Source of the DNA: Candidatus Marinacidobacterales bacterium
GTDB taxonomy: Bacteria > Acidobacteriota > Vicinamibacteria > Marinacidobacterales > DATDRI01
Assembly (NCBI GenBank): GCA_965222425.1
Contig: CBDCTW010000017.1
Coordinates: forward strand, 267,579-331,578
Direction of reading: 5' to 3'
Length of the DNA: 64,000 nt
Position numbers and translations under genes: made by a program. Within the stretch, counting starts at the first letter, position 1; each line of letters starts with the position of its first letter. The notes under the pieces are model-generated. The model ran no database searches, had not been told where the DNA came from, and was given only the letters and a program-made list of their open reading frames with translations. Shown piece by piece: positions 3,891-51,302 of this stretch.

Positions 3891-3896
3891 CCTTCT

Positions 3897-5535: not shown

Positions 5536-5912
5536 GAATGGCGCCGCGGCAGCAGCTCACTGTCGTGGACTTGGTACTCCACCAATCGATATTCGAGCTG
5601 ACCTTCTCCGGCGAACATCTTCAAGCGCAGCGGTACTAACCCTTCATCAGTCCAAAACTCGAACGTCGAGTCCTCCCAACCGCCTGGGTAGCGAAGCTGG
5701 AAGCGGTGCCCCGGCACCGGGCCCGACGGTCCGTCCACGGTGACCGGCCCAAAGGAGCGCAACTTCGCTTCCTGATGATCTGCGAGACCATATTCGTACC
5801 TCCTCACCAGCCATCGAAGAACCGGCCGGTCCACCATACTGTATGCATCACGTTTGACCGGTGGAAGTGCGGCAAATAGAATACGCCGTCTCGGGCGGCT
5901 GCGGCGACGGTT
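5529..5912 (-). CDS. hypothetical protein (about 127 aa)
   Basis: Start MNRRRSRPRRRILFAAL... The rest of track ORF 5529-6479 overlaps the sortilin gene on the other strand and is discounted. No family recognised. Confidence 0.3.
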   Translation of the reverse strand, partial: NRRRSRPRRRILFAALPPVKRDAYSMVDRPVLRWLVRRYEYGLADHQEAKLRSFGPVTVDGPSGPVPGHRFQLRYPGGWEDSTFEFWTDEGLVPLRLKMFAGEGQLEYRLVEYQVHDSELLPRRHSQ

Positions 5913-5975
5913 CATGCCTCGCCCAACGCCAGCAGCAAGTTGCAGCAAACGCGTAACAAGGAAAAGGAGCCGAAG

Positions 5976-7851
5976 GTGAACCACTCTTGCACTCACGGAA
6001 CCATTCCCATCGTCGCACTGCTGCTGGCCGCGTTGGCGCCTAATGTCGTTGCCGAGTCCTACGACCCCGACGTCTACCAAGCGATGAAGTGGCGTCTCAT
6101 CGGCCCCCACCGCGGGGGTCGCGTAACGACCGCGGTCGGAGTCCCTGGACAACCGAACGTCTACTACCAAGGGGCCACCGGCGGAGGCGTTTGGAAAACC
6201 ACCGACGGCGGGCTTGCCTGGAAGAACGTCTCGGACGGGTTCTTCAAGACCGGCTCGGTAGGTGTCGTTGCGGTGGCGCCCTCCGACCCCAACGTTCTCT
6301 ACGTGGGGATGGGTGAGGTATGCATCCGCAGCAACTTCTCCCACGGTGACGGCGTCTATAAATCGACCGATGCCGGCAAGACCTGGACGCATATTGGGCT
6401 TTCTGACACTCGACAGATCGGTCAAATACGCATCCATCCCGAGAACCCTGACCTGGTCTACGTGGCGGCGCTCGGGCACGTTTTCGGACCCAACGAGGAA
6501 CGTGGCGTGTTCCGCTCCAAGGACGGAGGAAAGAATTGGGAGAAAGTCCTTTATATAGATGACAAGACCGGCGCCGTGGATCTCAGCCTAGACGTCACGA
6601 ACCCTGATGTGATCTACGCGGGCACGTGGCAGGTGATCCGACAATCGTGGGGCATCTTGCCGACCGGGCCGGGAAGCGGAATCTACAAAACGACCGACGG
6701 TGGCGATTCCTGGAACGAGCTGGCCAAGGGCCTGCCGGAATCGGATCTCGGAAGGATCGGAGTATCGGTCTCTCCCGTGAATCCCAACCGGGTCTGGGCG
6801 CTCGTCGAGGCCGAGGGCGGAGACCTTCTCCTCTCCGACGACGACGGCGCCAGTTGGACGATGGTCAACGACGACTTCCACCTGCAGCGCCGACCGTACT
6901 ATTACGGCCACATCTATGCCGACACTCAGGAGGTCGACACCGTCTACGTCCTCACCTCCCCTTTCATGAAATCGGTGGACGCCGGAAAGAACTTCGAGCA
7001 AGTCAGCGTCCCCCACGGGGACAACCACGACCTCTGGATCGCACCCGAGGACAATAAGAGAATGATCAACGCCAACGACGGTGGCGCTAACGTGTCCTTC
7101 GACGGTGGTAAGAGCTGGAGCCGCATCGACAACCAACCCACCGCTCAGTTTTATTGGGTGCTCACAGACGATCAGTTCCCTTACCGCGTATACGGAGCGC
7201 AGCAGGACAACACGACCGTTTCCATCACTAGCCGCAGCGACACCTTCGGCATCACGCCCCAACACTGGTTTGCGGTGGCGGGGGGCGAGAGCGGCTATAT
7301 CGCACCCAAGCCGGGCGATCCCGACATCACTTACGGCGGAAGCTACTGGGGTTTCATGACCCGCCACGATAGACGCACCGGCGAGACCCGCTCGATTTCT
7401 CCCTGGCCCGATCGGCCCTTGGGTCGGACTGGAGCCGGTCTCAAGTACCGCTTCAATTGGACCTACCCCATCGTCATCTCACCGCATGATCCCGAAACGA
7501 TTTACGCGGCGGCGAACGTCGTCTTCAAATCGACGAACGAGGGACAGAGCTGGGACGTGATCGGTGCAGATCTGACCCACGACGACAAGCGCAAGCAACA
7601 GCTCGGACGGCTCACCGACTTCTACGGCACCATCACAACGCTCGCCGAGTCGAAACTCCAAAAAGGTCTGATCTGGGTCGGCTCCGACGATGGCCGCGTT
7701 CACGTAACAACCGACGGTGGGAAAAACTGGCAGGACGTCACCCCTCCCCAAATGGAGGCATGGAGCTGGATCAAGATCGTCGAGCCTTCGCCCCATGACG
7801 CGGGATCGGCGTACCTAGCGGTTCATCGTTATCACCTCGACGATTACCGAC
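5976..7851 (+). pseudogene. Sortilin/VPS10-like BNR (Asp-box) repeat protein, N-terminal 625 aa; 3' end cut by IS copy 2
   Basis: GTG 5976 with AAGGAG 6 nt upstream; signal peptide. Eight S/TxDxGxxW repeats (STDAGKTW, SKDGGKNW, TTDGGDSW, SDDDGASW, ...). ORF reads ..VHRYHLDDYR then into IS sequence (RGCPGRC*). Confidence 0.75.
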
Positions 7852-9311
7852 GGGGATGTCCCGGCCGCTGTTGAATTTGGTCGGGTAGCGGCGGCACCTG
7901 TGAATACTCTTAGGCAGCAAACTCATCGCTGTCAAGAGATTTTTGTTTGCTTCTAAGCGCGTGAACGAGAGCGCCCATATGGCGATAGCCTTTGATACGC
8001 CGGAACTTTTTCTGCGCGGTGACGACGCCAAGAGCGGTCCATCGGCGAACCATGGAAGGACTCTTCCAACGCTTGACGTTTCTCGATACTCTGCGAATGG
8101 TTACGTTGAGATTCTCAATGGCGTTCGTCGTGGCAAGAGACTGGCGAAGTAAGGCGGGCGGCGCGAGCTTCACGACCGTGAGTGTTTCTTCCATCCCTTC
8201 ACGAAGGCTTCCGGCAGCTTCGTCGTAGCCGTTTCGCTCGAGCCACGACACCAATGCCTGAAGTCGCTTGCGCGCCTTGTCGGCACTCTTGCACTTGTAG
8301 GCTTCCTTCATCGTCTGGAGCACGTAGGCGTGACGAGACTTGGGAAGGTACGAGCGAAGATTTCGGAGTTTATGGATCTGGCACCTTTGGATGACCGCGA
8401 GGTCCCCCAAAACGTCGACGAGTGCCTTGCGGATGCCTTTGCCTCCGTCCACTACGCAGAGAATCGACTCATCGACGCGCAAGCCTCGCTCGAGAAGGTC
8501 CTGCAACATCGCGGTGCACACCCGAGAGTTCTCCGTCGAGCCCAGCCATATACCCAGGGGCACCTTCGTTCCATCTATTGTGATACCTAAAGTTACGACG
8601 ACGGTCTGTCCGGCCACCTCAAGGCCATCCAGCATCAGTGCCGCAAGCTCGAACTCCTCTAGCCGCCGAGACAGGTATTCCTCGAGCTTCTTAGTCGTCT
8701 GGCTCACGAGGTGACGGCTGGCGGCACTCTTACTCGTGCCACGAGACTTCAACTTGGCCGCGGGTTTGTCCAGACTCGATTCGTAATTTCGGGTCGATAC
8801 GCCCACCAAGATCTGATTCAACACTCGCTCTGGAAGCGGGTCTTCTTCGCGGAAGGCTTCGAAGTGTGGAAGCGACGCCTCCGCGCCCGACTTCGAGCGA
8901 ACTCGAGGTCGCGACACTTGGATGCGACGACCACCGAAGCTCAGCTCTCCGTTCGTGCTCCCCCAGTGGTTATGAGTTCGCTCCTTCTCGTGCTTGCCCT
9001 TGAGCCCCGCGATCTCCTCGGCGTCCTCTCTGAGCAGTAGGTGCAGAGCTGTCAGTCCTTGCTCGTACACCCATTCCGTCAGATCCGCCTTCGTGGCCGC
9101 GATCCCAGCTATCATCGGTAGCAGTATCTGACCGACTTGGCCAACTACCTTGCCCGTAGGCGAGTGCGTTTGCTTTCTTACTGGCTTCTTTGATTTCCTA
9201 GGCATTGGTGGCTCCTTGTCCCCCTCTGGAGACGGTTTATTGGCAGACCTATTCTTAGGCCGGCCAAGGAGCCGCCGCTACCCCAAATTCAACATCCGGC
9301 GGGACATCCCC
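7852..9311 (-). mobile_element. IS256-family insertion sequence, copy 2
   Basis: Same ends as copy 1, inverted orientation. Flanks TTACCGAC (7844-7851) and AGGTTCAC (9312-9319). Confidence 0.9.
7910..9205 (-). CDS. IS256-family transposase, intact (431 aa)
   Basis: Full-length ORF. Differs from copy 3 by a few substitutions (e.g. ENLNVTIRR). Confidence 0.9.
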   Translation of the reverse strand: MPRKSKKPVRKQTHSPTGKVVGQVGQILLPMIAGIAATKADLTEWVYEQGLTALHLLLREDAEEIAGLKGKHEKERTHNHWGSTNGELSFGGRRIQVSRPRVRSKSGAEASLPHFEAFREEDPLPERVLNQILVGVSTRNYESSLDKPAAKLKSRGTSKSAASRHLVSQTTKKLEEYLSRRLEEFELAALMLDGLEVAGQTVVVTLGITIDGTKVPLGIWLGSTENSRVCTAMLQDLLERGLRVDESILCVVDGGKGIRKALVDVLGDLAVIQRCQIHKLRNLRSYLPKSRHAYVLQTMKEAYKCKSADKARKRLQALVSWLERNGYDEAAGSLREGMEETLTVVKLAPPALLRQSLATTNAIENLNVTIRRVSRNVKRWKSPSMVRRWTALGVVTAQKKFRRIKGYRHMGALVHALRSKQKSLDSDEFAA

Positions 9312-12580: not shown

Positions 12581-14040
12581 GGGGATGTCCCGGCCGCTGT
12601 TGAATTTGGTCGGGTAGCGGCGGCACCTGTGAATACTCTTAGGCAGCAAACTCATCGCTGTCAAGAGATTTCTGTTTGCTTCTAAGCGCGTGAACGAGAG
12701 CGCCCATATGGCGATAGCCTTTGATACGCCGGAACTTTTTTTGCGCGGTGACGACGCCAAGAGCGGTCCATCGGCGAACCATGGAAGGACTCTTCCAACG
12801 CTTGACGTTTCTCGATACTCTGCGAATGGTTCCGTTGAGATTTTCAATGGCGTTCGTCGTGGCAAGAGACTGGCGAAGTAAGGCGGGCGGCGCGAGCTTC
12901 CCGACCGTGAGTGTTTCTTCCATCCCTTCACGAAGGCTTCCGGCAGCTTCGTCGTAGCCGTTTCGCTCGAGCCACGACACCAATGCCTGAAGTCGCTTGC
13001 GCGCCTTGTCGGCACTCTTGCACTTGTAGGCTTCCTTCATCGTCTGGAGCACGTAGGCGTGACGAGACTTGGGAAGGTACGAGCGAAGATTTCGGAGTTT
13101 ATGGATCTGGCACCTTTGGATGACCGCGAGGTCCCCCAAAACGTCGACGAGTGCCTTGCGGATGCCTTTGCCTCCGTCCACTACGCAGAGAATCGACTCA
13201 TCGACGCGCAAGCCTCGCTCGAGAAGGTCCTGCAACATCGCGGTGCACACTCGAAAGTTTTCCGTCGAGCCCAGCCATATACCCAGGGGCACCTTCGTTC
13301 CATCTATTGTGATACCTAGAGTTACGACGACGGTCTGTCCGGCCACCTCAAGGCCATCCAGCATCAGTGCCGCAAGCTCGAACTCCTCTAGCCGCCGAGA
13401 CAGGTATTCCTCGAGCTTCTTAGTCGTCTGGCTCACGAGGTAACGGCTGGCGGCACTCTTACTCGTGCCACGAGACTTCAACTTGGCCGCGGGTTTGTCC
13501 AGACTCGATTCGTAATTTCGGGTCGATACCCCCACCAAGATCTGATTCAACACTCGCTCTGGAAGCGGGTCTTCTTCGCGGAAGGCTTCGAAGTGTGGAA
13601 GCGACGCCTCCGCGCCCGACTTCGAGCGAACTCGAGGTCGCGACACTTGGATGCGACGACCACCGAAGCTCAGCTCTCCGTTCGTGCTCCCCCAGTGGTT
13701 ATGAGTTCGCTCCTTCTCGTGCTTGCCCTTGAGCCCCGCGATCTCCTCGGCGTCCTCTCTGAGCAGTAGGTGCAGAGCTGTCAGTCCTTGCTCGTACACC
13801 CATTCCGTCAGATCCGCCTTCGTGGCCGCGATCCCAGCTATCATCGGTAGCAGTATCTGACCGACTTGGCCAACTACCTTGCCCGTAGGCGAGTGCGTTT
13901 GCTTTCTTACTGGCTTCTTTGATTTCCTAGGCATTGGTGGCTCCTTGTCCCCCTCTGGAGACGGTTTATTGGCAGACCTATTCTTAGGCCGGCCAAGGAG
14001 CCGCAGCTACCCCAAATTCAACATCCGGCGGGACATCCCC
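12581..14040 (-). mobile_element. IS256-family insertion sequence, copy 3, with perfect 8-bp TSD CTGCCACA (12573-12580 and 14041-14048)
   Basis: Ends identical to copies 1 and 2. The direct repeat CTGCCACA immediately flanks both ends. Confidence 0.95.
12639..13934 (-). CDS. IS256-family transposase, intact (431 aa)
   Basis: Full-length. A few unique substitutions (SRYLVSQ, STENFRV, LTVGKLAPP). Confidence 0.9.
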   Translation of the reverse strand: MPRKSKKPVRKQTHSPTGKVVGQVGQILLPMIAGIAATKADLTEWVYEQGLTALHLLLREDAEEIAGLKGKHEKERTHNHWGSTNGELSFGGRRIQVSRPRVRSKSGAEASLPHFEAFREEDPLPERVLNQILVGVSTRNYESSLDKPAAKLKSRGTSKSAASRYLVSQTTKKLEEYLSRRLEEFELAALMLDGLEVAGQTVVVTLGITIDGTKVPLGIWLGSTENFRVCTAMLQDLLERGLRVDESILCVVDGGKGIRKALVDVLGDLAVIQRCQIHKLRNLRSYLPKSRHAYVLQTMKEAYKCKSADKARKRLQALVSWLERNGYDEAAGSLREGMEETLTVGKLAPPALLRQSLATTNAIENLNGTIRRVSRNVKRWKSPSMVRRWTALGVVTAQKKFRRIKGYRHMGALVHALRSKQKSLDSDEFAA

Positions 14041-19126: not shown

Positions 19127-19221
19127 GTGACGAGACAGAGGGAAAAAAGATCGAAAAAAGACTTGACAGGTTTCGCGCAACAATTTAGGGAAGCGATGGA
19201 CCATTAACGTAAATACCTTCG

Positions 19222-19892
19222 GGGTCTACGCGGATTCGTGTGGGTTGAAGACGGCATTTCTGGGTAATAGCGGAAGGAATGCCGCCACGATCTTCAGCTT
19301 GAGATATTCCTCGTCGCGATAGCCGTAGGCGCGTCGTTGCAGCACACGGATTTTGTTGTTGACCCCTTCAACTAGGAGGCGCAGACGTTCCATCTCGGCC
19401 ACCGCCTTGTCCGGCATATCCCGGCACAGCTTGCCCACATGCGTCGCAAAACGCTAGGTGTAGCGCGAGTTGTTCGCCAGCCAGTCCAGGTGTTCTACAT
19501 GCAAACCGCCGCACCCAGGACAGTTGACGCGCCAACGCTCGTATTCCAGAGAGATCCGCCAGCCTGCCAACGACAGGTCGCGGACCCGGCACATTTGCTT
19601 GTCATAGCGCCCCCGGCACCGTTGCCCACAGTAAGAGCAAACAGCTGTTTTTTTCGCCTCTTGAGCTGGATGACGCGGGCGTATCGGTCATCGAATACAC
19701 CCTTCAATCCGGCACCAGCCACGAAACCTGGCAGCGCAAACAGCGAGCGGATCGACTGGGAATTTTTCACTCGGTTAGCCTATCCGAAAAATGGACCACT
19801 TTTCAGCACCTGATGAAGTCTGGATATTTTTTCCACACAATGAGTTACACTGTTTTCCGTCAGGACTTACCCACACGAATCCGCGTAGACCC
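19222..19892. mobile_element. ISL3-derived non-autonomous element (MITE-like, 671 bp) with 24-bp perfect TIRs and 8-bp TSD TACCTTCG
   Basis: GGGTCTACGCGGATTCGTGTGGGT at 19222-19245; its reverse complement at 19869-19892. TACCTTCG at 19214-19221 and 19893-19900. Minus-strand content: zf-ISL3 remnant (..CSYCGQRCRGRYDKQMCRVRDL..CPGCGGLHVEH..) joined to the ISL3 transposase C-terminal tail (LVEGVNNKIRVLQRRAYGYRDEEYLKLKI). The DDE core is deleted. Confidence 0.75.
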
Positions 19893-19916
19893 TACCTTCG
19901 TAAAGCGCATAGACGC

Positions 19917-19985
19917 CCTCTCACATCCTCTCACATCCTCTCACATCCTCTCACATCCTCTCACATCCTCTCTCATCCTCTCTCA
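19917..19985. repeat. tandem repeat, 10-bp unit TCACATCCTC x about 6.5
   Basis: Five perfect copies at 19921-19970, one variant (TCTCATCCTC), partial copies at both ends. Sits 120 bp upstream of the HNH gene. Confidence 0.9.
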
Positions 19986-20104
19986 ACGATTTCAGCATTT
20001 TCTTCATTTCAGTCCATTTACTTTCGTCTGGCGGCGGCTAAGGACCAAGAAAAACACGTTGCTATGATTGAAGAAGCAAGACTAGAAGTGAGGGAGCGAC
20101 AATC

Positions 20105-39908: not shown

Positions 39909-40249
39909 GAGACTGGTCAGATGTTAGTCCGGGGGCAAGATGTGGGCAAATGGTCGCGGCTTCCAGGCGCCGTGTACGCCAAACGGTGGTCGTCTCGATC
40001 CCGAGTGCAGCCCGTGATCCGCGGCCGCGCCGGATCGGCTGGGATCACAACCGTCGCTGCGATACCCCGGCTTGCTGCACGGGAGGTTGAGCCCTCGCGC
40101 TTTTGGGGTGACCGCGACAAGTGTTGCAATTAAATGGCTTGTAGAAGTCACTCGTTACTAAGTGTAAGCTATGCAGTTTTTCTGACAAGGGGCGGAGCGA
40201 AAAACCGCCTGAGTCGAAGATGGGTGTGCGTCATAAATGTGGGGTGAGA

Positions 40250-41149
40250 CTACCCGCAGCGGGCCTCCCAGAACTGCTCCCAGCGACGGCTGAGTTCGCA
40301 GCATCTGAGGGCGATGATGGCATTGGCACCGCGGACGGTCCAGCGCATTCCGGATTGCTTGAGCCGACGGCCGACGATGGTTTTGCATGCCGCCTCGACG
40401 ACGCCGGAGCCGACGAACAAACCTTGTTCACGGAAGCGCTGGTAGCGCATCCGCTCCGTGTTGGTCTGGAAGTAAGCCGTTGCCTTTCTGAGCTCGTCCT
40501 TGACGAATTCGCTTTTGGGGCGCAAGCGAGCAAAGGTCGAGAGAAGCCCTTCAAGGTTGGCTTCATCAAGCAGTTGGATGGATGCCTCTGTCCACGCCTT
40601 GGCCTGGAGTGGTTCGTACAGCACCTTGGCAAGGTCTGAAACATGCTCGCGGGCATGGTAGAGGTCGAGGATCTCGGTGGCATCCGCAAAGTGCTCAGCC
40701 GCAAGATTCCAGATCCAGGGCGCACCATCTCCGATGACAATGACCTGTTCGGCAAAGCGCAGGCCCCGCCGGATGGCCTCGGTAAAGATTCGTTGGCCGA
40801 ACTCTTCGGCGGTTTCGATGGCGCCGACGTAAGTGGTGGAGTCCGGATCACGAAGAGCAAAGCCCTCGTCGTCCAAGCTTGTCTGCGTGAACACGCAACC
40901 GAGCTTGGCCTCCCTGCTCTTCGCCATGCCCGAGTCGTCTTTGCCTTGCCGTCCTTGTGTCTCATGTGGGACCATGGGCACTCCGGTGCCGTCGATGGCG
41001 ATGTACATCTTGGGCACCGGTTTGATCCGAACTATTTTTCCGGACAACACCAGCTTACGCTCCTTGCCAGCGATAGCCTCGACCTGTTGCCCAAGTCTTT
41101 CTGAGACCCGTTCCACCTCTTTCGTATTGACCACGATTCCAGCTAGTAG
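40250..41149 (-). pseudogene. C-terminal part of the ISKra4-like DDE transposase (interrupted by the nested IS)
   Basis: ..IDGTGVPMVP..VIGDGAPWIWN..ILDLYHAREHV..ANAIIALRC.. Family assignment from memory of ISKra4-type motifs; moderate. Confidence 0.6.
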
Positions 41150-41157
41150 TTCTAGAT

Positions 41158-42547
41158 GGTGATGTCTTAAGATTCCTGTCAAAGAAAAACGATGTATGGT
41201 TCCCCAAGCTCAAACCCGTCCCCGCCATGGGGACAGAAAAGGAGAACCATACATCATGGGAAAGGTACTACCGAGTCAGCGATTGCTCAAGCAGTTCGAG
41301 GAACAACTGGTATTTGGGGAGATGAATCTCTCGGAGATCGTCCGGTCGGGAGCTCAGATGATGCTTCAATATGCGTTGGAGCGCGAGGTGACGGAGGCGT
41401 TGGGTCGAAACTACTATGAGAACGCTCCGGCAACGACGAAGGAGAAGGGACGACGCAACGGGTATGAGTCGCATCGGGTCCTCACGGGCGAGGGAGCGGT
41501 AACGGTGCAAGTGCCGCAGGTACGAGAAACAGAGAAGGTGTTTCAGTCAAAAATTCTCGACGCCTACGTGAGCCGGACCGAGAAATTCGATGAACTGATC
41601 GCGCGGATGTACGTCCACGGGATGTCGACGCGTGACATTGAGGCGACGTTCGCGGACGTGCTGAGCGGCACGGGTGTCTCGAAGTCGGTGGTGAGCCGGG
41701 TCACACGGTGTCTGTCGGAGGATTTCGAGGCGTTTCGAAAACGGGATCTCTCGAACGAGAAGCTGTTGTATCTCGAGCTCGACGGCACGTACCTGCGCTA
41801 CCACCAAGGAGCGGAGAGGAAAGAGCCCATCCTCGTTGCGACCGGCTATCGCGCTGATGGGACGCGAGTTCTTCTTCATATCGGTGTCGGCAACCGAGAA
41901 TCCTACGAGAACTGGAAGGGGTTCTTGCAGGAGATGGTGGCCCGAGGAATGAGGGAGCCGTTGCTCATCGTGACGGACGGGAATCCTGGAGTGCTCAAAG
42001 CGATCGCAGAGGTCTTCCCTCGAAGCCTCAAGCAACGTTGCCAGAAGCACCGCCTCGAGAACATCCTGGGCAAGGCTCCGAAGGAAGTGCGCGACGAACT
42101 CAAGGCGGCCATCCTTGAGTCGTTCCATGCGAACAGCTACGAGCAAGGGCTGAAGAAGGGTCGGGAGGTGATCGCTCGGTACCGCCAACGATTCCCGAGC
42201 GCGATGAAGTGCATGGAAGAGACCCTCGAAGCGTGTCTTCAGGCGCTACGCCTTCCTGCGGCGGATCACAAAAGGCTTCGCACGTCGAATCTACTTGAGC
42301 GCACGTTCGGAGAGCACAAACGTCGCACAAAGGTCATTCCTCACTTCTTCACCGAGGAGGCCGCGATGAAACTCTCGTTCGCTGTGCTCTTGGCCGTCGC
42401 AAACAAATGGCGCGGCGTGAGGATGGATGTCTTCGCCGCTAGGAAAGTCGAGGAGCTTCGCAACGAGCTTCTCCCGCAAGGCACGTCGGAGGAATCAGCA
42501 GCTTAACCGAGCGCGGGGAACCGTACGGAGATTTGACAGGAAAATTA
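41158..42547 (+). mobile_element. second IS256-family element (1390 bp) nested in the ISKra4-like transposase gene; perfect 8-bp TSD TTCTAGAT
   Basis: 26-bp imperfect TIRs GGTGATGTCTTAAGATTCCTGTCAAA / rc GGTCAAGTCTTAATTTTCCTGTCAAA. TTCTAGAT at 41150-41157 and 42548-42555. Removing element plus one TSD (1398 bp, multiple of 3) restores the host ORF. Confidence 0.85.
41256..42506 (+). CDS. IS256-family (mutator-type) transposase, apparently intact
   Basis: AAGGAG RBS. MSTRDIE, YLELDGTYL, ..RCQKHRLENI.., ..LRTSNLLERTFGEHKRRTKV motifs; divergent from the 3-copy element. Confidence 0.8.
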   Translation: MGKVLPSQRLLKQFEEQLVFGEMNLSEIVRSGAQMMLQYALEREVTEALGRNYYENAPATTKEKGRRNGYESHRVLTGEGAVTVQVPQVRETEKVFQSKILDAYVSRTEKFDELIARMYVHGMSTRDIEATFADVLSGTGVSKSVVSRVTRCLSEDFEAFRKRDLSNEKLLYLELDGTYLRYHQGAERKEPILVATGYRADGTRVLLHIGVGNRESYENWKGFLQEMVARGMREPLLIVTDGNPGVLKAIAEVFPRSLKQRCQKHRLENILGKAPKEVRDELKAAILESFHANSYEQGLKKGREVIARYRQRFPSAMKCMEETLEACLQALRLPAADHKRLRTSNLLERTFGEHKRRTKVIPHFFTEEAAMKLSFAVLLAVANKWRGVRMDVFAARKVEELRNELLPQGTSEESAA

Positions 42548-42555
42548 AGACTTGA

Positions 42556-43055
42556 CCTTCTAGATCTTGGCGCCCCTCGTCGAAGGGTTCCCTGCTGCCG
42601 ACGCGTCCCATGAGGCGCCGCACGCCGGGAGAGAAGGAGGTTGCCACGATGTCCAGCTCACGGTCCCTGGGAATACTGCCCTGCTGGCAGTCTGGACAGT
42701 GGTAATAGGCCCTTCGAAGCTCGACCTTCGAGAGGACGGTCCGGAGCGTCTTGCTTCGGTGGTCCACGAACGTGGCCAGGTGACCCTTGCCGCAGTCGAT
42801 CCGGTGACCTCGATACCCATCGTCCGCAGCGAGCAGCTTTTCCAGCAGGACACCACCCATCTCGTGCATCGAGTTCCGCACGGCCATCTCGGTTGCCTCG
42901 AGATCGACGCGGGCGGCTCGAGCGCTCCCGGGCACAACGCGTAAGAGCAAACGCTCTACTTCCCGTGCGAACTCCTCTTGGACGAGTTGCGTGAGGTTTT
43001 TTTTAACGCGGTCTTTTCCGAATCGGCTGCGGGCTCCTCGGGGCGCGCGTTGCAA
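42556..43055 (-). pseudogene. N-terminal part of the ISKra4-like transposase
   Basis: ..YYHCPDCQQG.. Cys-rich N-terminal region. Ends ..RQDLE at the nested-IS TSD. Confidence 0.55.
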
Positions 43056-43366
43056 ATCCCCTCGTTGACTTGCAGCAGCTGCTGGGTGAGGAACCGGAAG
43101 CGCTTATAGGTCTCGACCTCCCGCTCGATCTTGGCGAGCCGCGGCCCGGGGCGGAGTTGCAAGGTTTTGGTCTTGCCCTCGACCTTGGTGGTGAAAGCGT
43201 AATAGGGACCGTGGCCAGGATGCTTGCGCTCGGAGCAACAACAGCCGGACTTTCCACAGGAGCGGAAGACCTCTGTGATAGTGCCTCGACGCATGTCACC
43301 GAGCTCAGCGATCTGGCAAAGGATGGCTTCGCGCTGGGTCAGGAGTGGGGGAAGCAGGTCTGGCAT
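42956..43366 (-). CDS. small Cys-rich ORF at the 5' end of the ISKra4-like element (accessory ORF, function unknown)
   Basis: ..CGKSGCCCSERKHPGHGPYYAFTTKVEGK..; overlaps the transposase start by about 100 nt in another frame. Confidence 0.3.
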   Translation of the reverse strand: MPDLLPPLLTQREAILCQIAELGDMRRGTITEVFRSCGKSGCCCSERKHPGHGPYYAFTTKVEGKTKTLQLRPGPRLAKIEREVETYKRFRFLTQQLLQVNEGICNARPEEPAADSEKTALKKTSRNSSKRSSHGK

Positions 43367-43474
43367 GGGCGGTCCTCCCTCTGATAGTTACAATACTATC
43401 AGAACATCGCGCCTCACATGCACCCTTCCAAATCTACCTACTTTCATGACGCACACCCGTCGAAGATTTCACGC

Positions 43475-43504
43475 TTGACAGATCACCCCCGGATCCCATA
43501 TGAT
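43475..43504 (+). promoter_or_regulatory. sigma70-like promoter (TTGACA - 17 nt - ATATGA/TATGAT) directed toward leuB
   Basis: TTGACA 43475-43480, 17-nt spacer, TATGAT 43499-43504; 8 bp downstream of the IS TSD. Confidence 0.45.
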
Positions 43505-43708
43505 GACCGTGCCCGGCCTAGCTTAGTGAAATATGCATTGGTGTTCCTCTGTTGGGTTAATTCGACCGAGGGTCCACTTGAGGCCCGTAAAGCATAGTAT
43601 GCGGTGCCAATCCCGTCCAACGATCGAAGCCGCAATATCTGTCCGCTACATCTTTATCCACGTCCCTAACAACTCCACATAGTCTCTCGGTTCTTGACAG
43701 GGGGTTCG

Positions 43709-43737
43709 GGGGGCGCCTCGCGCGCCCCCTTTTTTTT
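43709..43737 (+). terminator. intrinsic terminator-like hairpin (8-bp GC stem GGGGGCGC/GCGCCCCC, loop CTCGC, T8) 36 nt upstream of the leuB start
   Basis: Perfect stem 43709-43716 / 43722-43729 followed by TTTTTTTT 43730-43737. Confidence 0.6.
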
Positions 43738-43773
43738 GATCGGAAACCGCTCTCGCCGGTTATAAAGGAGACC

Positions 43774-44844
43774 ATGAAGCTCGAAATAACAGTCCTTCCA
43801 GGAGACGGCATCGGTCCCGAAGTCACGACAGAGGCCATCCGTGTGCTCGAAGCTGTGGCGAGTCGTTTCGGCCATCAGATCGTAGCGCAGGAATACCCAT
43901 TTGGAACCCGCGCCTACGCCCAGTTCGGCAAAGCCTTCCCCGACGAGACGCGAAAGGCTTGTCTCGACAGCCAGGCGGTGTTCCTGGGCGCGGTGGGAGA
44001 TCCCGCCTATGGCAAGTTCCCCCCCGGTGAGCGCCCGGAGGCGGCCCTGCTGGAGCTGCGGCGCCAACTCGGTAATTTCGCCAACCTTCGCCCCATCGTG
44101 TCGCAATTCAATCCCGAGGGCTCGCCGTTTCGCGATGAAGCGCTGAAGGGCTTGGACGTTCTCATCGTCAGAGAGCTTATCGGCGGTTTGTACTTCGGCG
44201 AGCCGCGGGGAAGGGAAGGGGATGGAGCGGGGGCCCGCGCTTGGAACACCCTAGTTTACACGGCCGAAGAGGTCGAGAGGATCACTCGGGTCGCTTTCGA
44301 GGCCGCCACGGGGCGGAAGGGGCACGTCACTTCGGTGGACAAAGCCAACGTGCTCGAGACGTACAAGATGTGGCGGGAGGTCGTCGAATCCGTCGGTAAA
44401 GACTATCTGGAAGTCCGGCTCGATCATATGTACGTCGATCGGGCAGCGATGGAGCTCATCTCGAACCCCCGGCAGTTCGACGTCATGGTGACGGGCAATC
44501 TATTCGGCGACATCTTGAGCGACGAGGCGTCGGTGTTGGCCGGCTCTTTGGGGCTTCTGCCTTCGGCAAGTATCGGGGGCAAGGTCGGGATCTACGAGCC
44601 CGTGCACGGCTCCGCTCCCGACATCGCCGGAAGAGGAATCGCGAATCCCATCGGTGCCATCGGTTCGATGGCGATGATGCTCCGCTACTCTTTTGATTTG
44701 AATGAGGAGGCCGCCGCCATAGACGGAGCGATCACGGCTGCCATGGACAAGGGCTTCTTGACCGCCGACCTGGTGGGCTCGGATGCGGCCAAGTCCACGA
44801 AGGTGGTAGGTGGTTTCATCGCGGATGCCGTCTCCGGGGATTAG
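43774..44844 (+). CDS. leuB: 3-isopropylmalate dehydrogenase
   Basis: MKLEITVLPGDGIGPEV.., full-length isocitrate/isopropylmalate dehydrogenase fold, AAGGAG RBS. Confidence 0.95.
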   Translation: MKLEITVLPGDGIGPEVTTEAIRVLEAVASRFGHQIVAQEYPFGTRAYAQFGKAFPDETRKACLDSQAVFLGAVGDPAYGKFPPGERPEAALLELRRQLGNFANLRPIVSQFNPEGSPFRDEALKGLDVLIVRELIGGLYFGEPRGREGDGAGARAWNTLVYTAEEVERITRVAFEAATGRKGHVTSVDKANVLETYKMWREVVESVGKDYLEVRLDHMYVDRAAMELISNPRQFDVMVTGNLFGDILSDEASVLAGSLGLLPSASIGGKVGIYEPVHGSAPDIAGRGIANPIGAIGSMAMMLRYSFDLNEEAAAIDGAITAAMDKGFLTADLVGSDAAKSTKVVGGFIADAVSGD

Positions 44845-44862
44845 CCCCAGATTCTAAAGACA

Positions 44863-45381
44863 CTAAGTCTCAGACCGCGGCTTATTCTCGGCCGCTTCCC
44901 GTTTCAGAGAGTCCTGCGCCCTGAGCTTGGCGTCGATGAAATCCGAGTGGCGGACGTGAATGAGCTTGGCGACCTTTCGGATGAGATGCTCTTCGTGCTT
45001 TTCGAGCTCGGCGTCGCTGAGCGCCACGCGCCAAAGCAGCTCCACGACGTGTTTTTTCTGTTCCAAGGCAAAGCCACGATCGATGAGCCGTGTGAAGTCG
45101 TAGATCGATACCGACTGCCGCGACTCCTCATCGGCGAGACCAATGAGCTCCGCGGTCTCCTCCGGTGATAGATCGAAAGTGCGCCGGATCGCTTCTCCCA
45201 CCATGCGTCGCTCGCTCTCTTCGACCTTGAAGTCGGCGCGCGTCATCTCGATCAGCAGCGCGGCGGTTGCAAGTTGCAGAGAGTGCTCCGAGCCGGTCGA
45301 GTCCGGAGAACCTGTTCGCCCACTACTCGTGGCGGGTTGAATTCTGGTATCGAAAAACTGCTGTATCGCCTTTAGTACCAT
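44863..45381 (-). CDS. TerB-like (tellurite-resistance TerB family) protein
   Basis: 172 aa, TerB-type helical domain (..LLIEMTRADFKVEESERRMV..). Confidence 0.55.
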   Translation of the reverse strand: MVLKAIQQFFDTRIQPATSSGRTGSPDSTGSEHSLQLATAALLIEMTRADFKVEESERRMVGEAIRRTFDLSPEETAELIGLADEESRQSVSIYDFTRLIDRGFALEQKKHVVELLWRVALSDAELEKHEEHLIRKVAKLIHVRHSDFIDAKLRAQDSLKREAAENKPRSET

Positions 45382-45407
45382 CTCTTATTTGGACTCTGGG
45401 CCATCAT

Positions 45408-45725
45408 CTAGATCTGGGTCGGCGCGTTCTGCGTTGCTCGAGGCTCGAAGAAGTACAGGGTGAGCGCGCCCAGGCCCCACAAGCATACCGCTAGATCCGC
45501 CAGCCACCCAACGAACGGAACCAACCACACGACGTGGATCAGGGCCAGCCCCAGGGCGAGCCTTCCGATGGCGTCGCCTTGCCCTACCGGCGGCCCCAGG
45601 AGCTCTCGTCCCAGCCACGCTCCAACGAAGACCTGCGCCGAATAGACGGCTGCGACGTAAGCCACGAAGGCGAGGATTCCAACCGGGAGTCCGACCAGCG
45701 TCAGGCAGATCATCGTCGCGATCAC
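45408..45725 (-). CDS. small integral membrane protein (3 predicted TM helices)
   Basis: Hydrophobic 105-aa ORF; start overlaps the stop of the upstream C39-like gene (ATGA). Confidence 0.4.
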   Translation of the reverse strand: MIATMICLTLVGLPVGILAFVAYVAAVYSAQVFVGAWLGRELLGPPVGQGDAIGRLALGLALIHVVWLVPFVGWLADLAVCLWGLGALTLYFFEPRATQNAPTQI

Positions 45726-46375
45726 TGGAACGGCGACGAGGGCGGCGGCACCGATTCCGATCGATAGGCCGTACCTCGGTATTCGGCGAGCACGCCGGCG
45801 ACCAGTCTTGCCAAAGCCTTCCAGTCCGGATCAGCAGATGCTTGTTCGATCAGATCGCGTGAAGTGTTTTTTTGAACCTTCAGGGCATCGAGCCTCGACT
45901 CGATGGCGCCTCGCGCCTCGTCGGATCCCGACCACTCACGCCAGGCGGCGGCTGGGACCCGCATGGTGTGCTCGTAGAGCTCCTGCAAGAACCGTGTCTC
46001 GGAGATCCATCTTCGTCCGAACGCAGGATCCATGATTTGCACGAGTCGACCGTGGCGACTCCACACGATGACAAAATGCGCCGCACCGTTCGGCAGCTCG
46101 GCTACCGCCAAAGCGAGTAGGGCATGCGCCGCCGGCAAGAGAACGTGATCGGCCGGCACCAAGATCTGTTCCGCTTCAAGCCCGAGCTCGACGGCTACGT
46201 TTTCCAAGGTGTCGATGGAGGTGCCGTCGACATCGGTTTGGCAGGCTTCTCGCAGACGGCCGTAGCTAACGGGAAGCGCGAAGCCGTCCAACAAGCTCTT
46301 GAGGGCGGCCGGTCCGCAGTCCATCGCGGACGACTGGACGACCTCCGGCGCGAAGAAACGATGCCGTGTGCGCAA
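45722..46375 (-). CDS. stand-alone papain-like C39 peptidase-domain protein
   Basis: SAMDCGPAALKSLLDGFALPVSYGRLRE..GTSIDTLENVAVELGL (Cys motif) and ..AHFVIVW.. (His). No fused ABC transporter. Confidence 0.55.
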   Translation of the reverse strand: MRTRHRFFAPEVVQSSAMDCGPAALKSLLDGFALPVSYGRLREACQTDVDGTSIDTLENVAVELGLEAEQILVPADHVLLPAAHALLALAVAELPNGAAHFVIVWSRHGRLVQIMDPAFGRRWISETRFLQELYEHTMRVPAAAWREWSGSDEARGAIESRLDALKVQKNTSRDLIEQASADPDWKALARLVAGVLAEYRGTAYRSESVPPPSSPFQ

Positions 46376-46386
46376 AGTCCGGAGCC

Positions 46387-46827
46387 TCAGTCGCGCCCGA
46401 TGGAACGAAGTAGGAGCGACGAGGGTGTGACGCGTTCGACTTCGATCTCGACCCTCCCTCGAAAGTGGTTTTGGTTCGATGGAAGTGGACCGGCATCTTC
46501 GTCAACGGTGAGCTCGACTCGCGTTTTTCCGTCACCGCCGGAAACCGGCTCGCTATCGACTCGAGTTACCGTCGCGGGCAGCGCACGTGCGCCCGTCAAC
46601 CGAACCCACGCTCTCTACTTGGGTCTGACGTCTGCCGCTTCACAGGCATCGAGCTCCGCGATAATTTTTGTCGAAGGGCCGTTTGCATTCAGAGAGAAGG
46701 TGTCGGTAACCGCATACAACGGGACCGTCGCCAGAAAGAACCAAGCACCCCACGCTCCAAGCAGCGGCGCAGCAATGAGCAAGGCGGCTAGAGTGAAACG
46801 AAACCCGTCGCGTTCGAGCGAGCGCAT
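46387..46827 (-). pseudogene. small membrane-anchored protein with an in-frame TAG (46615-46617)
   Basis: MRSLERDGFRFTLAALLIAAPLLGAWGAWFFLATVPLY..DVRPK*RAWVRLTGARALPATVTRVDSEPVSGGDGKTRVELTVDED..: track ORFs 46615-46962 and 46387-46599 are in the same frame. Confidence 0.3.
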
Positions 46828-46951
46828 CGAGCGGCAAAGTTGGCGGACATGAAGCGAAACGCTAATGTAGCACAGTCTCGCTGCTTTGCTCTGTGGTCGC
46901 CCTATGACTATGATGCCCTGTGATCTTGTCAGCCTGTAAGGAGGAAGGTTC

Positions 46952-48184
46952 TTGAGCCGCAAACGCCGTTGGGTCTGGAAATTGCTCGCCGTTTTGCTCG
47001 TCGGTCTCTTTGGATTCGGTGCCTACACCCTAGATCGGATGGCGCTCTCGTATCTCACGGGACAGCGCCGTGTTCCGGGTCGAGACTTCTTTGGAGCCAC
47101 GGTTCGGGATGGTGGTCCGGTGCCGGGCTTCGCCTTTCTGGGTTGGACCCAACGTTCAGAGAATCCCGAAGGAGTCAAGATCCTCCGACCTTGGGAGTCG
47201 GGACGGGAGATCGGGCTGCGCTCCGGCGACGTGATCACTCGTGTCGATGGCACTCTGCTTCTGGACGGCAGGGACCTTCACAGTGTGTTCCTCACCGAGT
47301 ACGAGGCGGGCGATGCCGTGTCGCTGACCGTGGAGAGAGAAGCGGAGCCCTCTCGGGACGTTCAGTTAGTGCTCAAACCGTTTCTCCGAAACCCGGGAGA
47401 CCTGGGGCTCCCCTACGAGGACGTCGAGGTTGCCTCGTCGAGCGGTTTCAATCTCCAAGGTTGGTTCATTCCGCCTCCGGAAGGAAGCGATGGACGAGTC
47501 GGAGTCTTCGTGCATGGCGCGAAATCATCGCGGTTCCAAGGATTAGAAGGCGCCAAGCACTGGTATCGTCGCGGGTATGGTCTTCTTACTATGGATTTGA
47601 GCGGCCGCGGAACGAGTGAAGGTGATTTCGTGACGTATACCGTGAACGAGCGTCTCGACGTCGCCAGCATGACCAAGTGGATCCGCCAGCAGGAGTTGGT
47701 CCGGCCGGACGCGGTGGTGATCTTTGGAACCTCGAACGGTGCGGCATCTGCCATCTTTGCCGCGGCAGAGGATCCCGCGCTCGCCGCTTTGGCTCTCGAC
47801 GCGCCTTACTCGGACCTTTGGGCCGCCGCCGGTGAAATGCTGGGGTCGCGAGGGGTGAGCATGTGGTTCCGCTATCCGCTCAGCTTGGCGGTCCGTTGGC
47901 GTGCCGGCATCGATCTAAAGAGCATACGTCCGGCCGACGTCATTACCCAGATTCAGGCCCCGGTGTTGTTCCTTCACGGCGACGCCGACGATCAGGTGCC
48001 GCCGTACCACTCCGAGCTTCTCGACGATCTTCGCCGCGAAGCGAGCCTTCCAAGTGAGCGATGGGTGTTGCCGGGCGGCGAGCATGGTTTCGACAAGTAC
48101 CCGCCCCCGGGCATCTTCTGGAATCGAGTCCTGGACTTTTTCGACGCCGCCCTGGGGGGCGCGCCGGCTGATTTGACGCTTTAG
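46952..48184 (+). CDS. membrane-anchored PDZ-domain alpha/beta-hydrolase
   Basis: N-terminal TM. PDZ (GLRSGDVITRVDG..AGDAVSLTVER). GTSNGAASA (GxSxG) and DLH/S9-like C-terminus. Confidence 0.75.
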   Translation: MSRKRRWVWKLLAVLLVGLFGFGAYTLDRMALSYLTGQRRVPGRDFFGATVRDGGPVPGFAFLGWTQRSENPEGVKILRPWESGREIGLRSGDVITRVDGTLLLDGRDLHSVFLTEYEAGDAVSLTVEREAEPSRDVQLVLKPFLRNPGDLGLPYEDVEVASSSGFNLQGWFIPPPEGSDGRVGVFVHGAKSSRFQGLEGAKHWYRRGYGLLTMDLSGRGTSEGDFVTYTVNERLDVASMTKWIRQQELVRPDAVVIFGTSNGAASAIFAAAEDPALAALALDAPYSDLWAAAGEMLGSRGVSMWFRYPLSLAVRWRAGIDLKSIRPADVITQIQAPVLFLHGDADDQVPPYHSELLDDLRREASLPSERWVLPGGEHGFDKYPPPGIFWNRVLDFFDAALGGAPADLTL

Positions 48185-48367
48185 GTTCTGTGATTCGTTT
48201 TTCCGGTCCAATGTAGGGGCGCAATGGGAGTTGGAGCGGCGAACTAGTTTTTCCCGTCCAAACCCGTGGAAGGCAGCCCGGATCCTTCGTCTCTAGAGAA
48301 GTCGACGCCCCGTGTGAAGGTTCATAACACACGACGACCGTCGATTCGCCGAGGCTAAGCCGAGAAG

Positions 48368-48835
48368 CTAGGCGGCTTTGCGGGTCAGAACCGGCAGCAG
48401 CCTGTCCGCGTCGAGATAGGCGATCTCAAAAGGCGAATCGACGGGTCCTTCGCGAGGTCGTGCTCGAGGAGGAGGGACGGCGGTCCAGTGAGCTGGAGTG
48501 TGACCGAAGTGGATTTCGGCCGGTGTCGCCCCTCCCAAACCCTGGTGCGGTCTCAGGTAGGTGTAGTAGTAAAGCCCGAGATGGAGCCGTTGTTGGAGAT
48601 CGGCCTTGACCAAGGGTTTTAAAGAGCGAAGTTTCAACGCGTCTTTGAGTGTTCTCCAGAGTCTTTCGATGATCGCAATGGAGCCGTACTTACCGATGGC
48701 ACCGAAGCGCTGCCGCGCGCCGAGCCGGCGAAGGGATTTGCGAAATCGCTTCGCCGTGAACTGCTTTCCCTTATCGGAGGCGAAGTGTTGGGGAGGACCG
48801 AACCGGTGGACCGTGGTTCGGAGCAACCGGGTCAT
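48368..48835 (-). pseudogene. IS3-family integrase-core (rve) C-terminal remnant, truncated by the IS481-like element
   Basis: ..[51 protein letters not shown].. from the second catalytic Asp onward. Confidence 0.55.
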
Positions 48836-48915
48836 GTCTCGTGCGGAGGGCGTTTGGTGCAAAAACTCGGCCGGGCACCCGATGCAGCCGCAAGTGGCTT
48901 CCGCTACGATGCTTT

Positions 48916-49989
48916 GCAATGAGCACATTCGTCTCGCCTCAACTCTTCCTGGTCTCCCTCTTGGCGCGCTGGCTGAACCAAGAGCAGCAGAAAATCCTTG
49001 AATTCCTCCAAGAGGAAAACCGCGTTTTGAAAGAGCAGCCCGGTGCGCGGCTCTACTTCAGTGATGACCAACGCCGCCGGCTCGCGGCGAAGGGCAAGGA
49101 GCTTGGCCGGAAACTGCTTGAGGAAGTGGCAACTCTGGTCACTCCGGACACGATCCTTCGATGGCACCGGCAGCTCATCGCGCGGAAATGGACATACCCT
49201 CGCCGTTAAACGGGACGTCCGCCGGTCTCGCGGAAAATAGAAGAGCTGGTCGTTCGCATGGCGACGGCAAATCCGCGCTGGGGTTACGACCGAATCCAAG
49301 GAGCTTTGGCCAACCTCGGGCACACGATCGCTCCGAATACGGTGAAGCGCATCCTGAAAGACCACGCCGTCGAGCCCGCGCCTGTGCGACGGGGGAAAAC
49401 GACGTGGAGCCAGTTCTTGAGTACCCATTGGGACACGCTAGCCGGTGCCGACTTCTTCACCACCGAAATCTGGACTCCCATGGGTCTGGTCACCTTCTAC
49501 GTCTTCTTCGTTATTCAACTGAGGACTCGTCGCGTTCATATCTCGTCGCCGACACCCAACCCGGATCGATTCTTTATGAAGCAAGTGGGGCTCGATATCA
49601 CCGCATTCGACGATAGCTTTATCCAAGGCTACTCGCACCTCATCATCGACCGAGATTCGAAATATACAACGGAGTTCCGGGAGATCCTGCAGGAAAACGA
49701 CGTCGGCGTCGTCCTGATTCCTCCAAAATCTCCGAACTGCAATCCTCACGCGGAGCGATTCGTGCGGTCGATCAAAGAGGAGTGCCTCGACCGCATGATC
49801 TTGTTTAGCCGGAATGCGCTGGAACGCGCTCTCCGCGAATACGGTCGCCATTATCTTCGAGAGCGGAATCACCAAGGCCTCGGAAACAGCCTAATCGAAT
49901 CGATTCCACACGCTTCGGATGGGCCCACCGTCGCATGTAGCGAACGACTCGGTGGGCTCCTGCGATACTACTACCGTTGCGCTGCCTGA
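48916..49989 (+). pseudogene. IS481-like (rve-superfamily) transposase with an in-frame TAA at 49207-49209
   Basis: N-terminal HTH/coiled region ..[44 protein letters not shown] then the same frame continues TGRPPVSRKIEELVVRMATANPRWGYDRIQGAL..HLIIDRDSKYTTEF..NPHAERFVRSIKEECL.. Confidence 0.65.
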
Positions 49990-50194
49990 AACGACCCAAC
50001 CGATCACCTGCTCGGCCCGTCTTTGTTGTCGTGTCCCTCGTCGCGATCGCGTGTCGACTCGATGAGCGGTGGTCAGCCTTGATTGGTAACGTCGTCGCGA
50101 TTTTCGCCAGCTTCACGTCCCAGTCGATCGTCGACGCGCCGACGCAATTCTTGCACTTTACGGGTTACCACCAACGAAGTCTGGAAAGACTGAG

Positions 50195-50463
50195 ATGAGC
50201 CATATCGATCTTGAATTAACCTATCGGGACGGTCGTCCTCCGCTTGGTTACTTGTACCTTTCTGAAGATCCGAACGAGAAGAGCGAGCACTCCCGCCGGG
50301 TTGAACCTGTGATGGTCATCGACTCAATAAAGACGGCAAGCTCATCGGCATCGAGCTCCTGGCTCCGAGCATGGTGACTCTCGAGGTCATCAGCGGCATC
50401 CTCAAAGCGTACGGAATGGAGCCTCTTAAAAAATCTGACCTGGCCCCGTTTCTCGCTGCCTAG
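50195..50463 (+). pseudogene. DUF2283-family small protein, 1-nt frameshift about 50325-50335
   Basis: MSHIDLELTYRDGRPPLGYLYLSEDP..VEPVMVIDS then in the +2 frame KDGKLIGIELLAPSMVTLEVISGILKAYGMEPL.. (DUF2283 pattern). Confidence 0.4.
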
Positions 50464-50555
50464 ACTAGTCGACCTACCGAATATCGGTGTCCGTCAAGCG
50501 AACCCAGGCGTTCGCCTCCTTCGCCACTGAGTGGAAAAATAGGATATAAAAGGTC

Positions 50556-51302
50556 ATGTCCTTATTGGATCAAGCCTTGTCTGTGCTCAAAGACCTGACG
50601 AGCACAGAGGGAAGGCTCAAGCTACGAATCGACCATAACACCAAGAAGCTCCTCGAGCGGTACGCGCAAAGTGAAGCGCGTATGGACGCAGCGAGGAAGT
50701 TGAAAGCCATCGGCACCCCTCAGGCGATCTATTGTTTGGCACGCCGTTTTTCGGTGACGACCGAGAACCTGGGAGTCGATCAGGACGAAAAGCGATACGT
50801 CCGCGACGAGCTCGTCGGTTTCGGTCAAGAAGTGGTCGAACCACTGAAACTCTATCTTCGTCGCCATAACCAGGTGACGTGGGCGGTAGACGCCCTCAGT
50901 ACGCTCCGTCCCGACGAAGACGTCGCTCCTTTTCTCCTCGAGATCTTGTTTCAGGGCGATCCGGTCCACATTCGAGGAGAAAAGGCCACCCAGATCCTCA
51001 AGGCGCTCGAGTTGATGCACATTGAGGGGGTCGTGGAAGGCGTGATCCCGTGCCTCAAGAGTGCCGATGACACCGTGCGAATTGCAGCTGTCGAGTGCCT
51101 CGAGGTACACGCCGACGAGCGTGCGCGCGAGCCACTACTAGAGGCCCTCGTGAGCGACGAAGAGGACTCCGTCCGCGTCCAGACCCGCATCACCGAGACC
51201 TTGGAGCGACTCGGTTGGGAAGTGACAGGATTCCGAAAAAAAATCGAGGCCGTGTTGCCCGAGCCGTACCGTGTGAGCTCCAAGGGCAAAGTGATCCGCT
51301 AG
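50556..51302 (+). CDS. HEAT/PBS-lyase-type repeat protein
   Basis: Repeated ..D..VR..A...L..... helical hairpins ([39 protein letters not shown]). Confidence 0.55.

Follow-up and report, generated by a model that had tools for sequence, protein, structure and literature searches.

An IS256-family element nested within an ISKra4-group insertion sequence next to the leuB promoter of a Marinacidobacterales bacterium

Introduction

Insertion sequences (ISs) of the IS256 family are about 1.2-1.5 kb long, carry a single transposase open reading frame (ORF), end in imperfect terminal inverted repeats (TIRs) and transpose through a circular intermediate. The IS256 and ISKra4 families are both placed in the Mutator-like superfamily of prokaryotes (Guerillot et al. 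2014, PMC3942029), and p-MULT elements produce 8- or 9-bp duplications (PMC3942029). In this study, we analysed a nest of one element of each kind, which lies upstream of the leuB gene in a 64,000-nucleotide stretch of DNA from Candidatus Marinacidobacterales bacterium (contig CBDCTW010000017.1, positions 267,579 to 331,578). This whole stretch is called the window here, and all coordinates are positions within it unless a contig is named. A first-pass annotation, which a model had made from the letters of the window, proposed that an IS256-family element had inserted into the transposase gene of an ISKra4-like element.

Programmed -1 frameshifting of the IS1/IS3 type uses A AAA AAC or A AAA AAG, and A AAA AAA is the classic slippery heptamer. 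According to the ISfinder table, ISMich2 elements are 1.25-1.4 kb long and have 8-bp duplications. The ISKra4 family comprises three groups, ISKra4, ISMich2 and ISAzba1. The 2014 paper gives a -1 frameshift only for ISMich2, the sister of the ISKra4 group, across which it is conserved, and found promoter targeting only in the ISKra4 group among the groups of the family (PMC3942029). TnGBS, ISLre2 and several, not all, of the ISKra4-group elements choose sites that lie 15-17 bp ahead of the -35 box in sigma-A promoters (Guerillot et al. 2014, PMC3942029). For the ISKra4-group elements, the promoter may lie at either end of the element, and the supplement of the same paper gives 9-bp direct repeats, inverted-repeat ends of ...GCACCC and transposases of 440-461 amino acids (aa) for this group (PMC3942029).

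Results

The locus was very probably built by two successive transpositions: an ISKra4-group element inserted 16 bp upstream of the leuB promoter, and an IS256-family element then inserted into orfB, the second of the two ORFs that encode the transposase of the first element. In the first step, the 1829-bp ISKra4-group IS would have entered between a histidine-kinase gene and leuB, duplicating 9 bp (GTCGAAGAT). Its target would have been a site at a distance of exactly 16 bp from the leuB -35 box, on the upstream side, and the promoter and the leuB leader would have been left intact. In the second step, the 1400-bp IS256-family element would have entered orfB in the opposite orientation, duplicating 8 bp (TTCTAGAT). 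This second site would be after codon 270 (E270) of the orfA-orfB fusion described below, and would divide the N-terminal, DNA-binding part from the catalytic DDE region. That the outer element came first and the inner one second follows from the uninterrupted outer copies and the free inner copies found elsewhere, and the same relative dating had been given in the first-pass annotation.

The outer element spans positions 40222-43458, which is 3237 bp with the insert and 1829 bp with the insert excised. Its TIRs are located at 40222-40243 (plus strand, GGGTGTGCGTCATAAATGTGGG, the orfB-distal end) and at 43437-43458 (minus strand, the orfA-proximal end, recognized by its match to the opposite end). 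The repeat GGGTGTGCGTCAT is present at both termini as a perfect core of 13/13 positions, and the extended repeat matches at 19/22; the first-pass annotation had given a TIR of 13-18 bp. The same ends are found in relatives L001-L011. The 9-mer GTCGAAGAT occurs only twice in the whole window, at 40213-40221 and 43459-43467, and each copy abuts one of the inverted outer repeats, as expected of a target-site duplication (TSD) and as the first-pass annotation had stated. The inner IS256-family element occupies 41158-42557 (plus strand, 1400 bp), and its imperfect 26-bp TIRs, likewise recognized before, are located at 41158-41183 and 42532-42557 and match at 22/26 positions. Its 8-bp TSD TTCTAGAT also occurs only twice in the window, directly outside these repeats at 41150-41157 and 42558-42565, and a single copy of the 8-mer stands at this point in uninterrupted outer copies. 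The left copy had been placed correctly, and perfect identity of the two copies holds; the right copy had been put 10 bp off, at 42548-42555, where the sequence is AGACTTGA. The pattern GTCTTAANNTTCCTGTCAAA was found in the window at the two inner ends only, with a chance expectation of 0. No second copy of the outer or the inner element was found within the 64-kb window.

The inner transposase (41256-42506, plus strand, 416 aa) is intact and belongs to the IS256/Mutator family. It matched NF033543 (IS256) with 288.9 bits (cutoff 150) over model positions 2-335 of 338, and PF00872 (Transposase_mut) with 256.6 bits. It is 99% identical to the representative of a 655-member protein cluster. Full-length members of this cluster commonly have 416 aa, one member is labelled Vicinamibacteria bacterium, and the inner element probably belongs to an uncultured lineage of Acidobacteriota / Vicinamibacteria. 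With 1400 bp, one 416-aa ORF and 22/26 repeats, the inner element fits the description of the IS256 family. The free element was found at ten other sites (L088-L097) with 99.5% identity across all 1400 bp and with identical ends, and it is flanked by 8-9-bp duplications of its own at nine of these ten sites. As far as can be judged from sequence, the inner element is intact and autonomous.

Excision in silico of the inner element together with one copy of TTCTAGAT yields a continuous reading ..FDEGRQDLELLAGIVVNTKEVERV.. on to the DGTGVPM, GDGAPWIWN and LYHAREH motifs, which the first-pass annotation had assigned to the C-terminal part, and the restored frame ends at the same stop as in relatives. 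The excised segment is 1408 bp and not 1398 bp as first calculated. It is not divisible by three, and the earlier argument from divisibility was both false and unnecessary, because the frame is restored owing to the two outer halves sitting in frames one base apart. The product of about 470 aa proposed at that time is only the stop-to-stop reading of orfB (465 codons from a TTG). The full transposase, including orfA, has 569 aa, and the sequence YYHCPDCQQG, which had been taken for the N-terminus, is located at residues 221-230 of this fusion. Only after this in-silico excision, the restored outer transposase matched NF033572 (ISKra4) with 313.9 bits (cutoff 205), and its residues 114-560 were aligned with model positions 13-422 of 422. 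The outer element also has the GGG...CCC termini and the 9-bp duplication that characterize the ISKra4 group. Both family labels of the first-pass annotation were thus confirmed by the model scores. A sequence search of the PDB with the 569-aa fusion as query found no relative. Both elements are unnamed members of known families.

Looking for uninterrupted outer copies elsewhere had been suggested as a check. Exact-protein look-up with orfA in long-read metagenome contigs located such 1829-bp copies in four other contigs (L099, L100, L101 and L102), with 99.78-99.84% nucleotide identity to the excised window copy, which favours a nested insertion. In the three contigs checked at the junction (L099, L100 and L102), exactly one copy of the 8-mer is shared by the two outer halves. 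More distant uninterrupted relatives align end to end, with 93.5% nucleotide identity for L009 and 90% for L001-L008, and the alignment of the junction region is gap-free in L001-L010. The complete relatives, about 60 in number and from many phyla, measure 1.8-1.9 kb, and perfect 9-bp duplications flank about 45 of them. Among about 90 related loci, none carries an IS256 element at the nested position. Near-identical (99.8%) intact outer copies are common in related contigs of three metagenome samples, and a scan of genome contigs found no copy with more than 92% identity, which makes it likely that the source species is not among the GTDB representatives. Compared with its sister copies, the outer copy in the window has 3 differences over 1829 positions and no other lesion, and the inner copy has 7 over 1400 positions relative to its free copies. 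Both insertions look recent, and either element may be active. An additional copy of the outer IS was found in L103 (5001-6160), with the exact orfA and an orfB of 226 aa; homology to the element stops at window-equivalent 40840, and this copy is truncated or otherwise interrupted.

A promoter-like site of the sigma-70 type, facing leuB, is located at 43475-43504 (plus strand). It is composed of the -35 box TTGACA (43475-43480), an 18-nt spacer and the -10 box TATGAT (43499-43504), and matches the consensus at 11 of 12 positions. The downstream gene leuB (43774-44844, plus strand) encodes 3-isopropylmalate dehydrogenase (TIGR00169, 437.2 bits, cutoff 353.2). The gap between the -35 box (43475) and the outer element, which ends at 43458, is exactly 16 bp. 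The first-pass annotation had mentioned this promoter in passing, as lying 8 bp outside the right TSD. The promoter-like site is indeed there, and it is the target-site signature of the outer element and not a coincidence. The promoter and the entire leader are untouched by the insertion.

This spacing is enriched across the clade of the outer element. Among 141 unique outward flanks, TTGACA (at least 5/6 matching) stands at offset 16 in 23, against a background of 0.48 per offset (Poisson P about 1e-30); the other offsets between 0 and 69 have at most 2 each. A perfect TTGACA is present at offset 16 at all six sites of the exact outer IS (the window, L099, L100, L101, L102 and L103), and no offset-16 signal was found in 22 control flanks of IS256 elements. 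When a strict two-hexamer rule was applied, 12 of the 14 promoter-like sites within 45 bp were at offset 15-16. In the flanks of the clade, the promoter adjoins either end of the element.

The orthologous kinase/IS/leuB locus of a diverged lineage is found in L101, where the IS occupies 4909-6737. There the IS is uninterrupted and is located at the homologous position in the same orientation as in the window, with a perfect duplication of its own (GTCTTCATT), and both promoter hexamers are conserved. The sequences indicate that the insertion in L101 was an independent hit on the same leuB promoter. A single ancestral insertion common to the window and L101 was also considered; it is unlikely, since 4 of 9 positions differ between the 9-bp duplications of the two loci and yet each is perfect, and since identity is 99.84% in the IS against 74-84% in the flanks. 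In L099 (3071-6737), the outer IS is present twice in tandem; the two copies are parted only by the 9-bp duplication GGAAGGTGG and stand beside a single TTGACA at 16 bp. This arrangement indicates a repeated hit on one promoter, the target of which survives the insertion.

The outer transposase is encoded in two overlapping frames on the minus strand. The first ORF, orfA (42956-43366, 136 aa), belongs to DUF6788 (PF20586, 82.4 bits) and has the Cys/His-rich motif CGKSGCCCSERKHPGH; an identical 136-aa orfA was called upstream of orfB in all uninterrupted relatives. orfB overlaps orfA in the -1 frame. On the basis of the conserved -1 relation, the A8 run at 42997-43004 (minus strand), which reads TTA AAA AAA ACC in the orfA frame, is proposed as the recoding site. 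A -1 slip there, after K123, would yield the 569-aa fusion, in which the Cys/His-rich region is at 190-230, the point of insertion follows E270, and D323, D411 and E438 are further downstream. In the window, translation and motif positions place the N-terminal orfB fragment at 42558-43004 (minus strand), from the slip site to fusion codon 270 and including the Cys/His-rich HRIDCGKGH...YYHCPDCQ. The C-terminal fragment (40250-41157, minus strand; translation, motifs and NF033572) contains the entire DDE region with D323, D411 and E438, and is separated from its start. Translation of the upstream fragment now continues for 20 codons within the IS256 end before a stop at 42495. The nested outer element would therefore yield only a truncated protein without the catalytic domain and would be non-autonomous. 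The first-pass annotation had called its transposase dead; this is too strong, as the ends of the element are intact, and non-autonomous is the better word. The transposase of a sister copy could in principle mobilise the whole 3237-bp nest via these intact outer ends.

The -1 relation between orfA and orfB was found in 72 of 87 related loci with 41-92% identity. These 87 loci come from Acidobacteriota, Nitrospirota, Anaerolineales, Desulfobacterota, Bacteroidota, Actinomycetota and others, and from short-read as well as long-read assemblies. An A-run stands at the orfA/orfB boundary in most of the 72 loci, and a run of A7-A10 is found in all but two of the distinct -1 contexts. The length and the phase of the run co-vary; by our reading of the two, the in-phase heptamer A AAA AAN is kept in 29 of 31 distinct -1 contexts. 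In all -1 contexts, orfA stops 13-21 codons past the run. Homology in the orfB frame starts right at the run, 37 codons ahead of the first ATG. Fused single-ORF homologues of 575 and 585 aa are also found; the 575-aa protein P0007, named 'ISKra4 family transposase' at NCBI, was compared with L012 as a test of prior annotation of the slip at NCBI, and is from a different locus. A literature search for DUF6788 found no papers. From conservation alone we infer that the outer transposase is probably produced by -1 recoding, and this reading is well supported.

Fifteen of the 87 loci lack the -1 relation. Four of these, in which orfA and orfB are apart or the copy is rearranged, did not enter the run analysis. 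In six others the run is A7, whereas sister copies in the same genome have A8; these six may be homopolymer errors or decayed copies. Such pairs of A7 and A8 sister copies, with an altered orfA/orfB frame relation, were observed at L040, L041, L043, L064 and L079 in long-read metagenome-assembled genomes (MAGs) of Bryobacterales; the A7 copies there are either homopolymer sequencing errors or inactivating one-base deletions of the slip site.

Another nested IS was seen in a 69%-identical relative of the outer IS in a Vicinamibacteria MAG (L014, JANODX010000054). An ISL3-like element with a 433-aa transposase, located at 2219-4008, has inserted exactly in the A8 slip site of this host IS, and A8 is present on both sides of it.

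The site upstream of leuB was also observed in another form. L098 (ERZ25068966 ctg549896) is 99.87% identical to window positions 43461-50844. In L098, a second, different IS256-family element (1-1480) abuts window-equivalent 43461, 14 bp upstream of the leuB -35 box, and replaces the nest; the contig ends at this element, and only one side of it is seen. Since the L098 allele differs from the nest, the population is polymorphic in structure at this site upstream of leuB. The second IS256-family element is 1460 bp long, encodes a 431-aa transposase (NF033543, 220.8 bits) and is present in the window in three copies, at 1398-2857 (plus strand), 7852-9311 (minus strand) and 12581-14040 (minus strand). 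The copy at 1398-2857 has a CAG-to-TAG nonsense mutation at 2329-2331, and the other two copies are intact. Recombination between copies is suggested by the lack of a matching duplication at this same copy, the one at 1398-2857.

The leuB leader (43505-43773, plus strand) has a strong terminator-like hairpin followed by T8 at 43708-43740, between the promoter and the ATG. This leader is 90% identical to that of L101, whereas the neighbouring coding flanks are 74-84% identical. Rfam gave nothing in the window at gathering scores, and for the leuB leader only weak matches driven by the terminator hairpin. The leader is a candidate for an undescribed attenuator or riboswitch-like leader. Elsewhere in the window, about 8 copies of a 10-nt unit (CCTCTCACAT) are arranged in tandem at 19907-19986, and the approximately 680 bp just upstream of this array (19218-19892) are 95% identical to part of L100.

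Discussion

The inner element resembles the IS256 family (p-MULT 1; the prototype is IS256 of staphylococcal Tn4001) in its 26-bp imperfect repeats, its single Mutator-type DDE transposase and its 8-9-bp duplications. It has no target motif, in agreement with the random insertion reported for this family (PMC3942029). The outer element resembles the ISKra4 group (p-MULT 4; ISKra4 and ISAcce1) in its NF033572 score, its GGG...CCC termini, its 9-bp duplication and the promoter offset of about 16 bp, but its transposase is split into orfA (DUF6788) and orfB, with a conserved -1 slip at an A-run. Two ORFs joined by a conserved -1 frameshift are a feature of the ISMich2 group. The outer element differs from that group in having 1829 bp and a 9-bp duplication. 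TnGBS and ISLre2 (p-MULT 3) are similar in inserting 15-17 bp upstream of a -35 box and in keeping the promoter intact; they have a transposase of another family and insert in one orientation only, whereas in the clade of the outer element the promoter is found at either end. As in IS1 and IS3 elements, an in-phase A AAA AAN is located at the orfA/orfB overlap and the orfA stop follows soon after. Unlike in those elements, the run usually comprises A8-A10, more than is needed for ribosomal slippage, and no downstream stimulatory structure was detected.

The 3.2-kb unit could be thought of as one composite element, in which the IS256-like segment is a natural internal passenger. Its intact outer ends could move the whole unit, and beyond this we found no evidence for such an origin. 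The segment has terminal repeats (22/26) and a perfect 8-bp duplication of its own, its removal restores a frame colinear with relatives, and it stands alone at ten other sites. Moreover, the outer element is found without it in four 99.8%-identical copies, three of which (L099, L100 and L102) have a single 8-mer at the junction, and the roughly 60 complete relatives reach only 1.8-1.9 kb. The uninterrupted outer copies and the free inner copies refute a composite origin of the nest, and we regard it as extremely improbable. An assembly artefact, in which a long-read metagenome assembler joined reads of separate IS copies, is very improbable as well. It is true that the related contigs stem from low-coverage (3-8x) long-read assemblies and that short-read metagenome contigs of relatives show shuffled flanks. 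A chimeric join, however, would not produce perfect 8-bp and 9-bp repeats exactly at both pairs of ends, nor would the two halves of the outer element then be colinear and equally oriented, with a restorable frame.

The two-ORF layout of the outer element could also be damage, either a one-nucleotide homopolymer deletion or a sequencing error, so that the outer element would have been dead before the IS256-family element arrived. Long-read assemblies commonly contain homopolymer indels, an A7 run or a fused frame occurs in a few relatives, the fused homologues of 575 and 585 aa exist, and no stimulatory structure was found downstream of the run. Damage would not explain, on the other hand, why the -1 relation with an A-run is shared by 72 of 87 loci across several phyla and both kinds of assembly, why the run length shifts with the phase so that A AAA AAN stays in phase in 29 of 31 contexts, and why orfA always ends 13-21 codons past the run. 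The exact IS is present in multiple copies that are 99.8% identical and flanked by fresh, perfect duplications, from which it follows that the two-ORF form transposes. We therefore consider damage improbable and prefer a two-ORF transposase joined by -1 recoding.

Several points weigh against our reading of the locus. The nest is known from one assembly only. A full two-hexamer promoter stands at offset 15-16 in only 12 of 130 flanks when judged by a strict E. coli-type consensus. As for recoding, the 15 loci lacking the -1 relation have been described above, and the 97 nt past the A8 run fold no better than shuffled sequences (z = -0.20), with no stimulatory structure evident; a stimulatory hairpin or pseudoknot past the run was dropped as a candidate on this ground. 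In addition, A8-A10 runs would also permit transcriptional slippage, and ribosomal and transcriptional slippage are indistinguishable from sequence alone.

Nested insertion sequences are routine, and the current understanding of transposition is unchanged by these findings. The nest is a test case for IS callers, since its ends are known exactly, along with both duplications, the allele before insertion and free copies of the two elements. It also means that a single disrupted ISKra4 transposase underlies the split 'hypothetical' ORFs at 40250-41182 and 42495-43366, and that the DUF6788 ORF of 'unknown function' in this clade is probably the N-terminus of a frameshift-fused transposase. Promoter-targeted insertion, which has been published for the ISKra4 group, is now extended to a large clade in uncultured soil phyla, and the targeting in this clade has single-base precision.

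In conclusion, the one possibly new point is the architecture of a DUF6788 orfA with -1 recoding within promoter-targeting ISKra4-group elements. As a tentative and rather doubtful proposal, the outer element may represent an undescribed subgroup of the ISKra4 group, widespread in Acidobacteriota, Nitrospirota, Chloroflexota, Actinomycetota and others, whose transposase is produced solely via -1 recoding at an A8-A10 run. If this is true, orfA alone could serve as a regulator, or as a module that recognizes the element ends or promoter-bound RNA polymerase, and the clade would be a useful natural system for learning how a DDE transposase reads -35 boxes.

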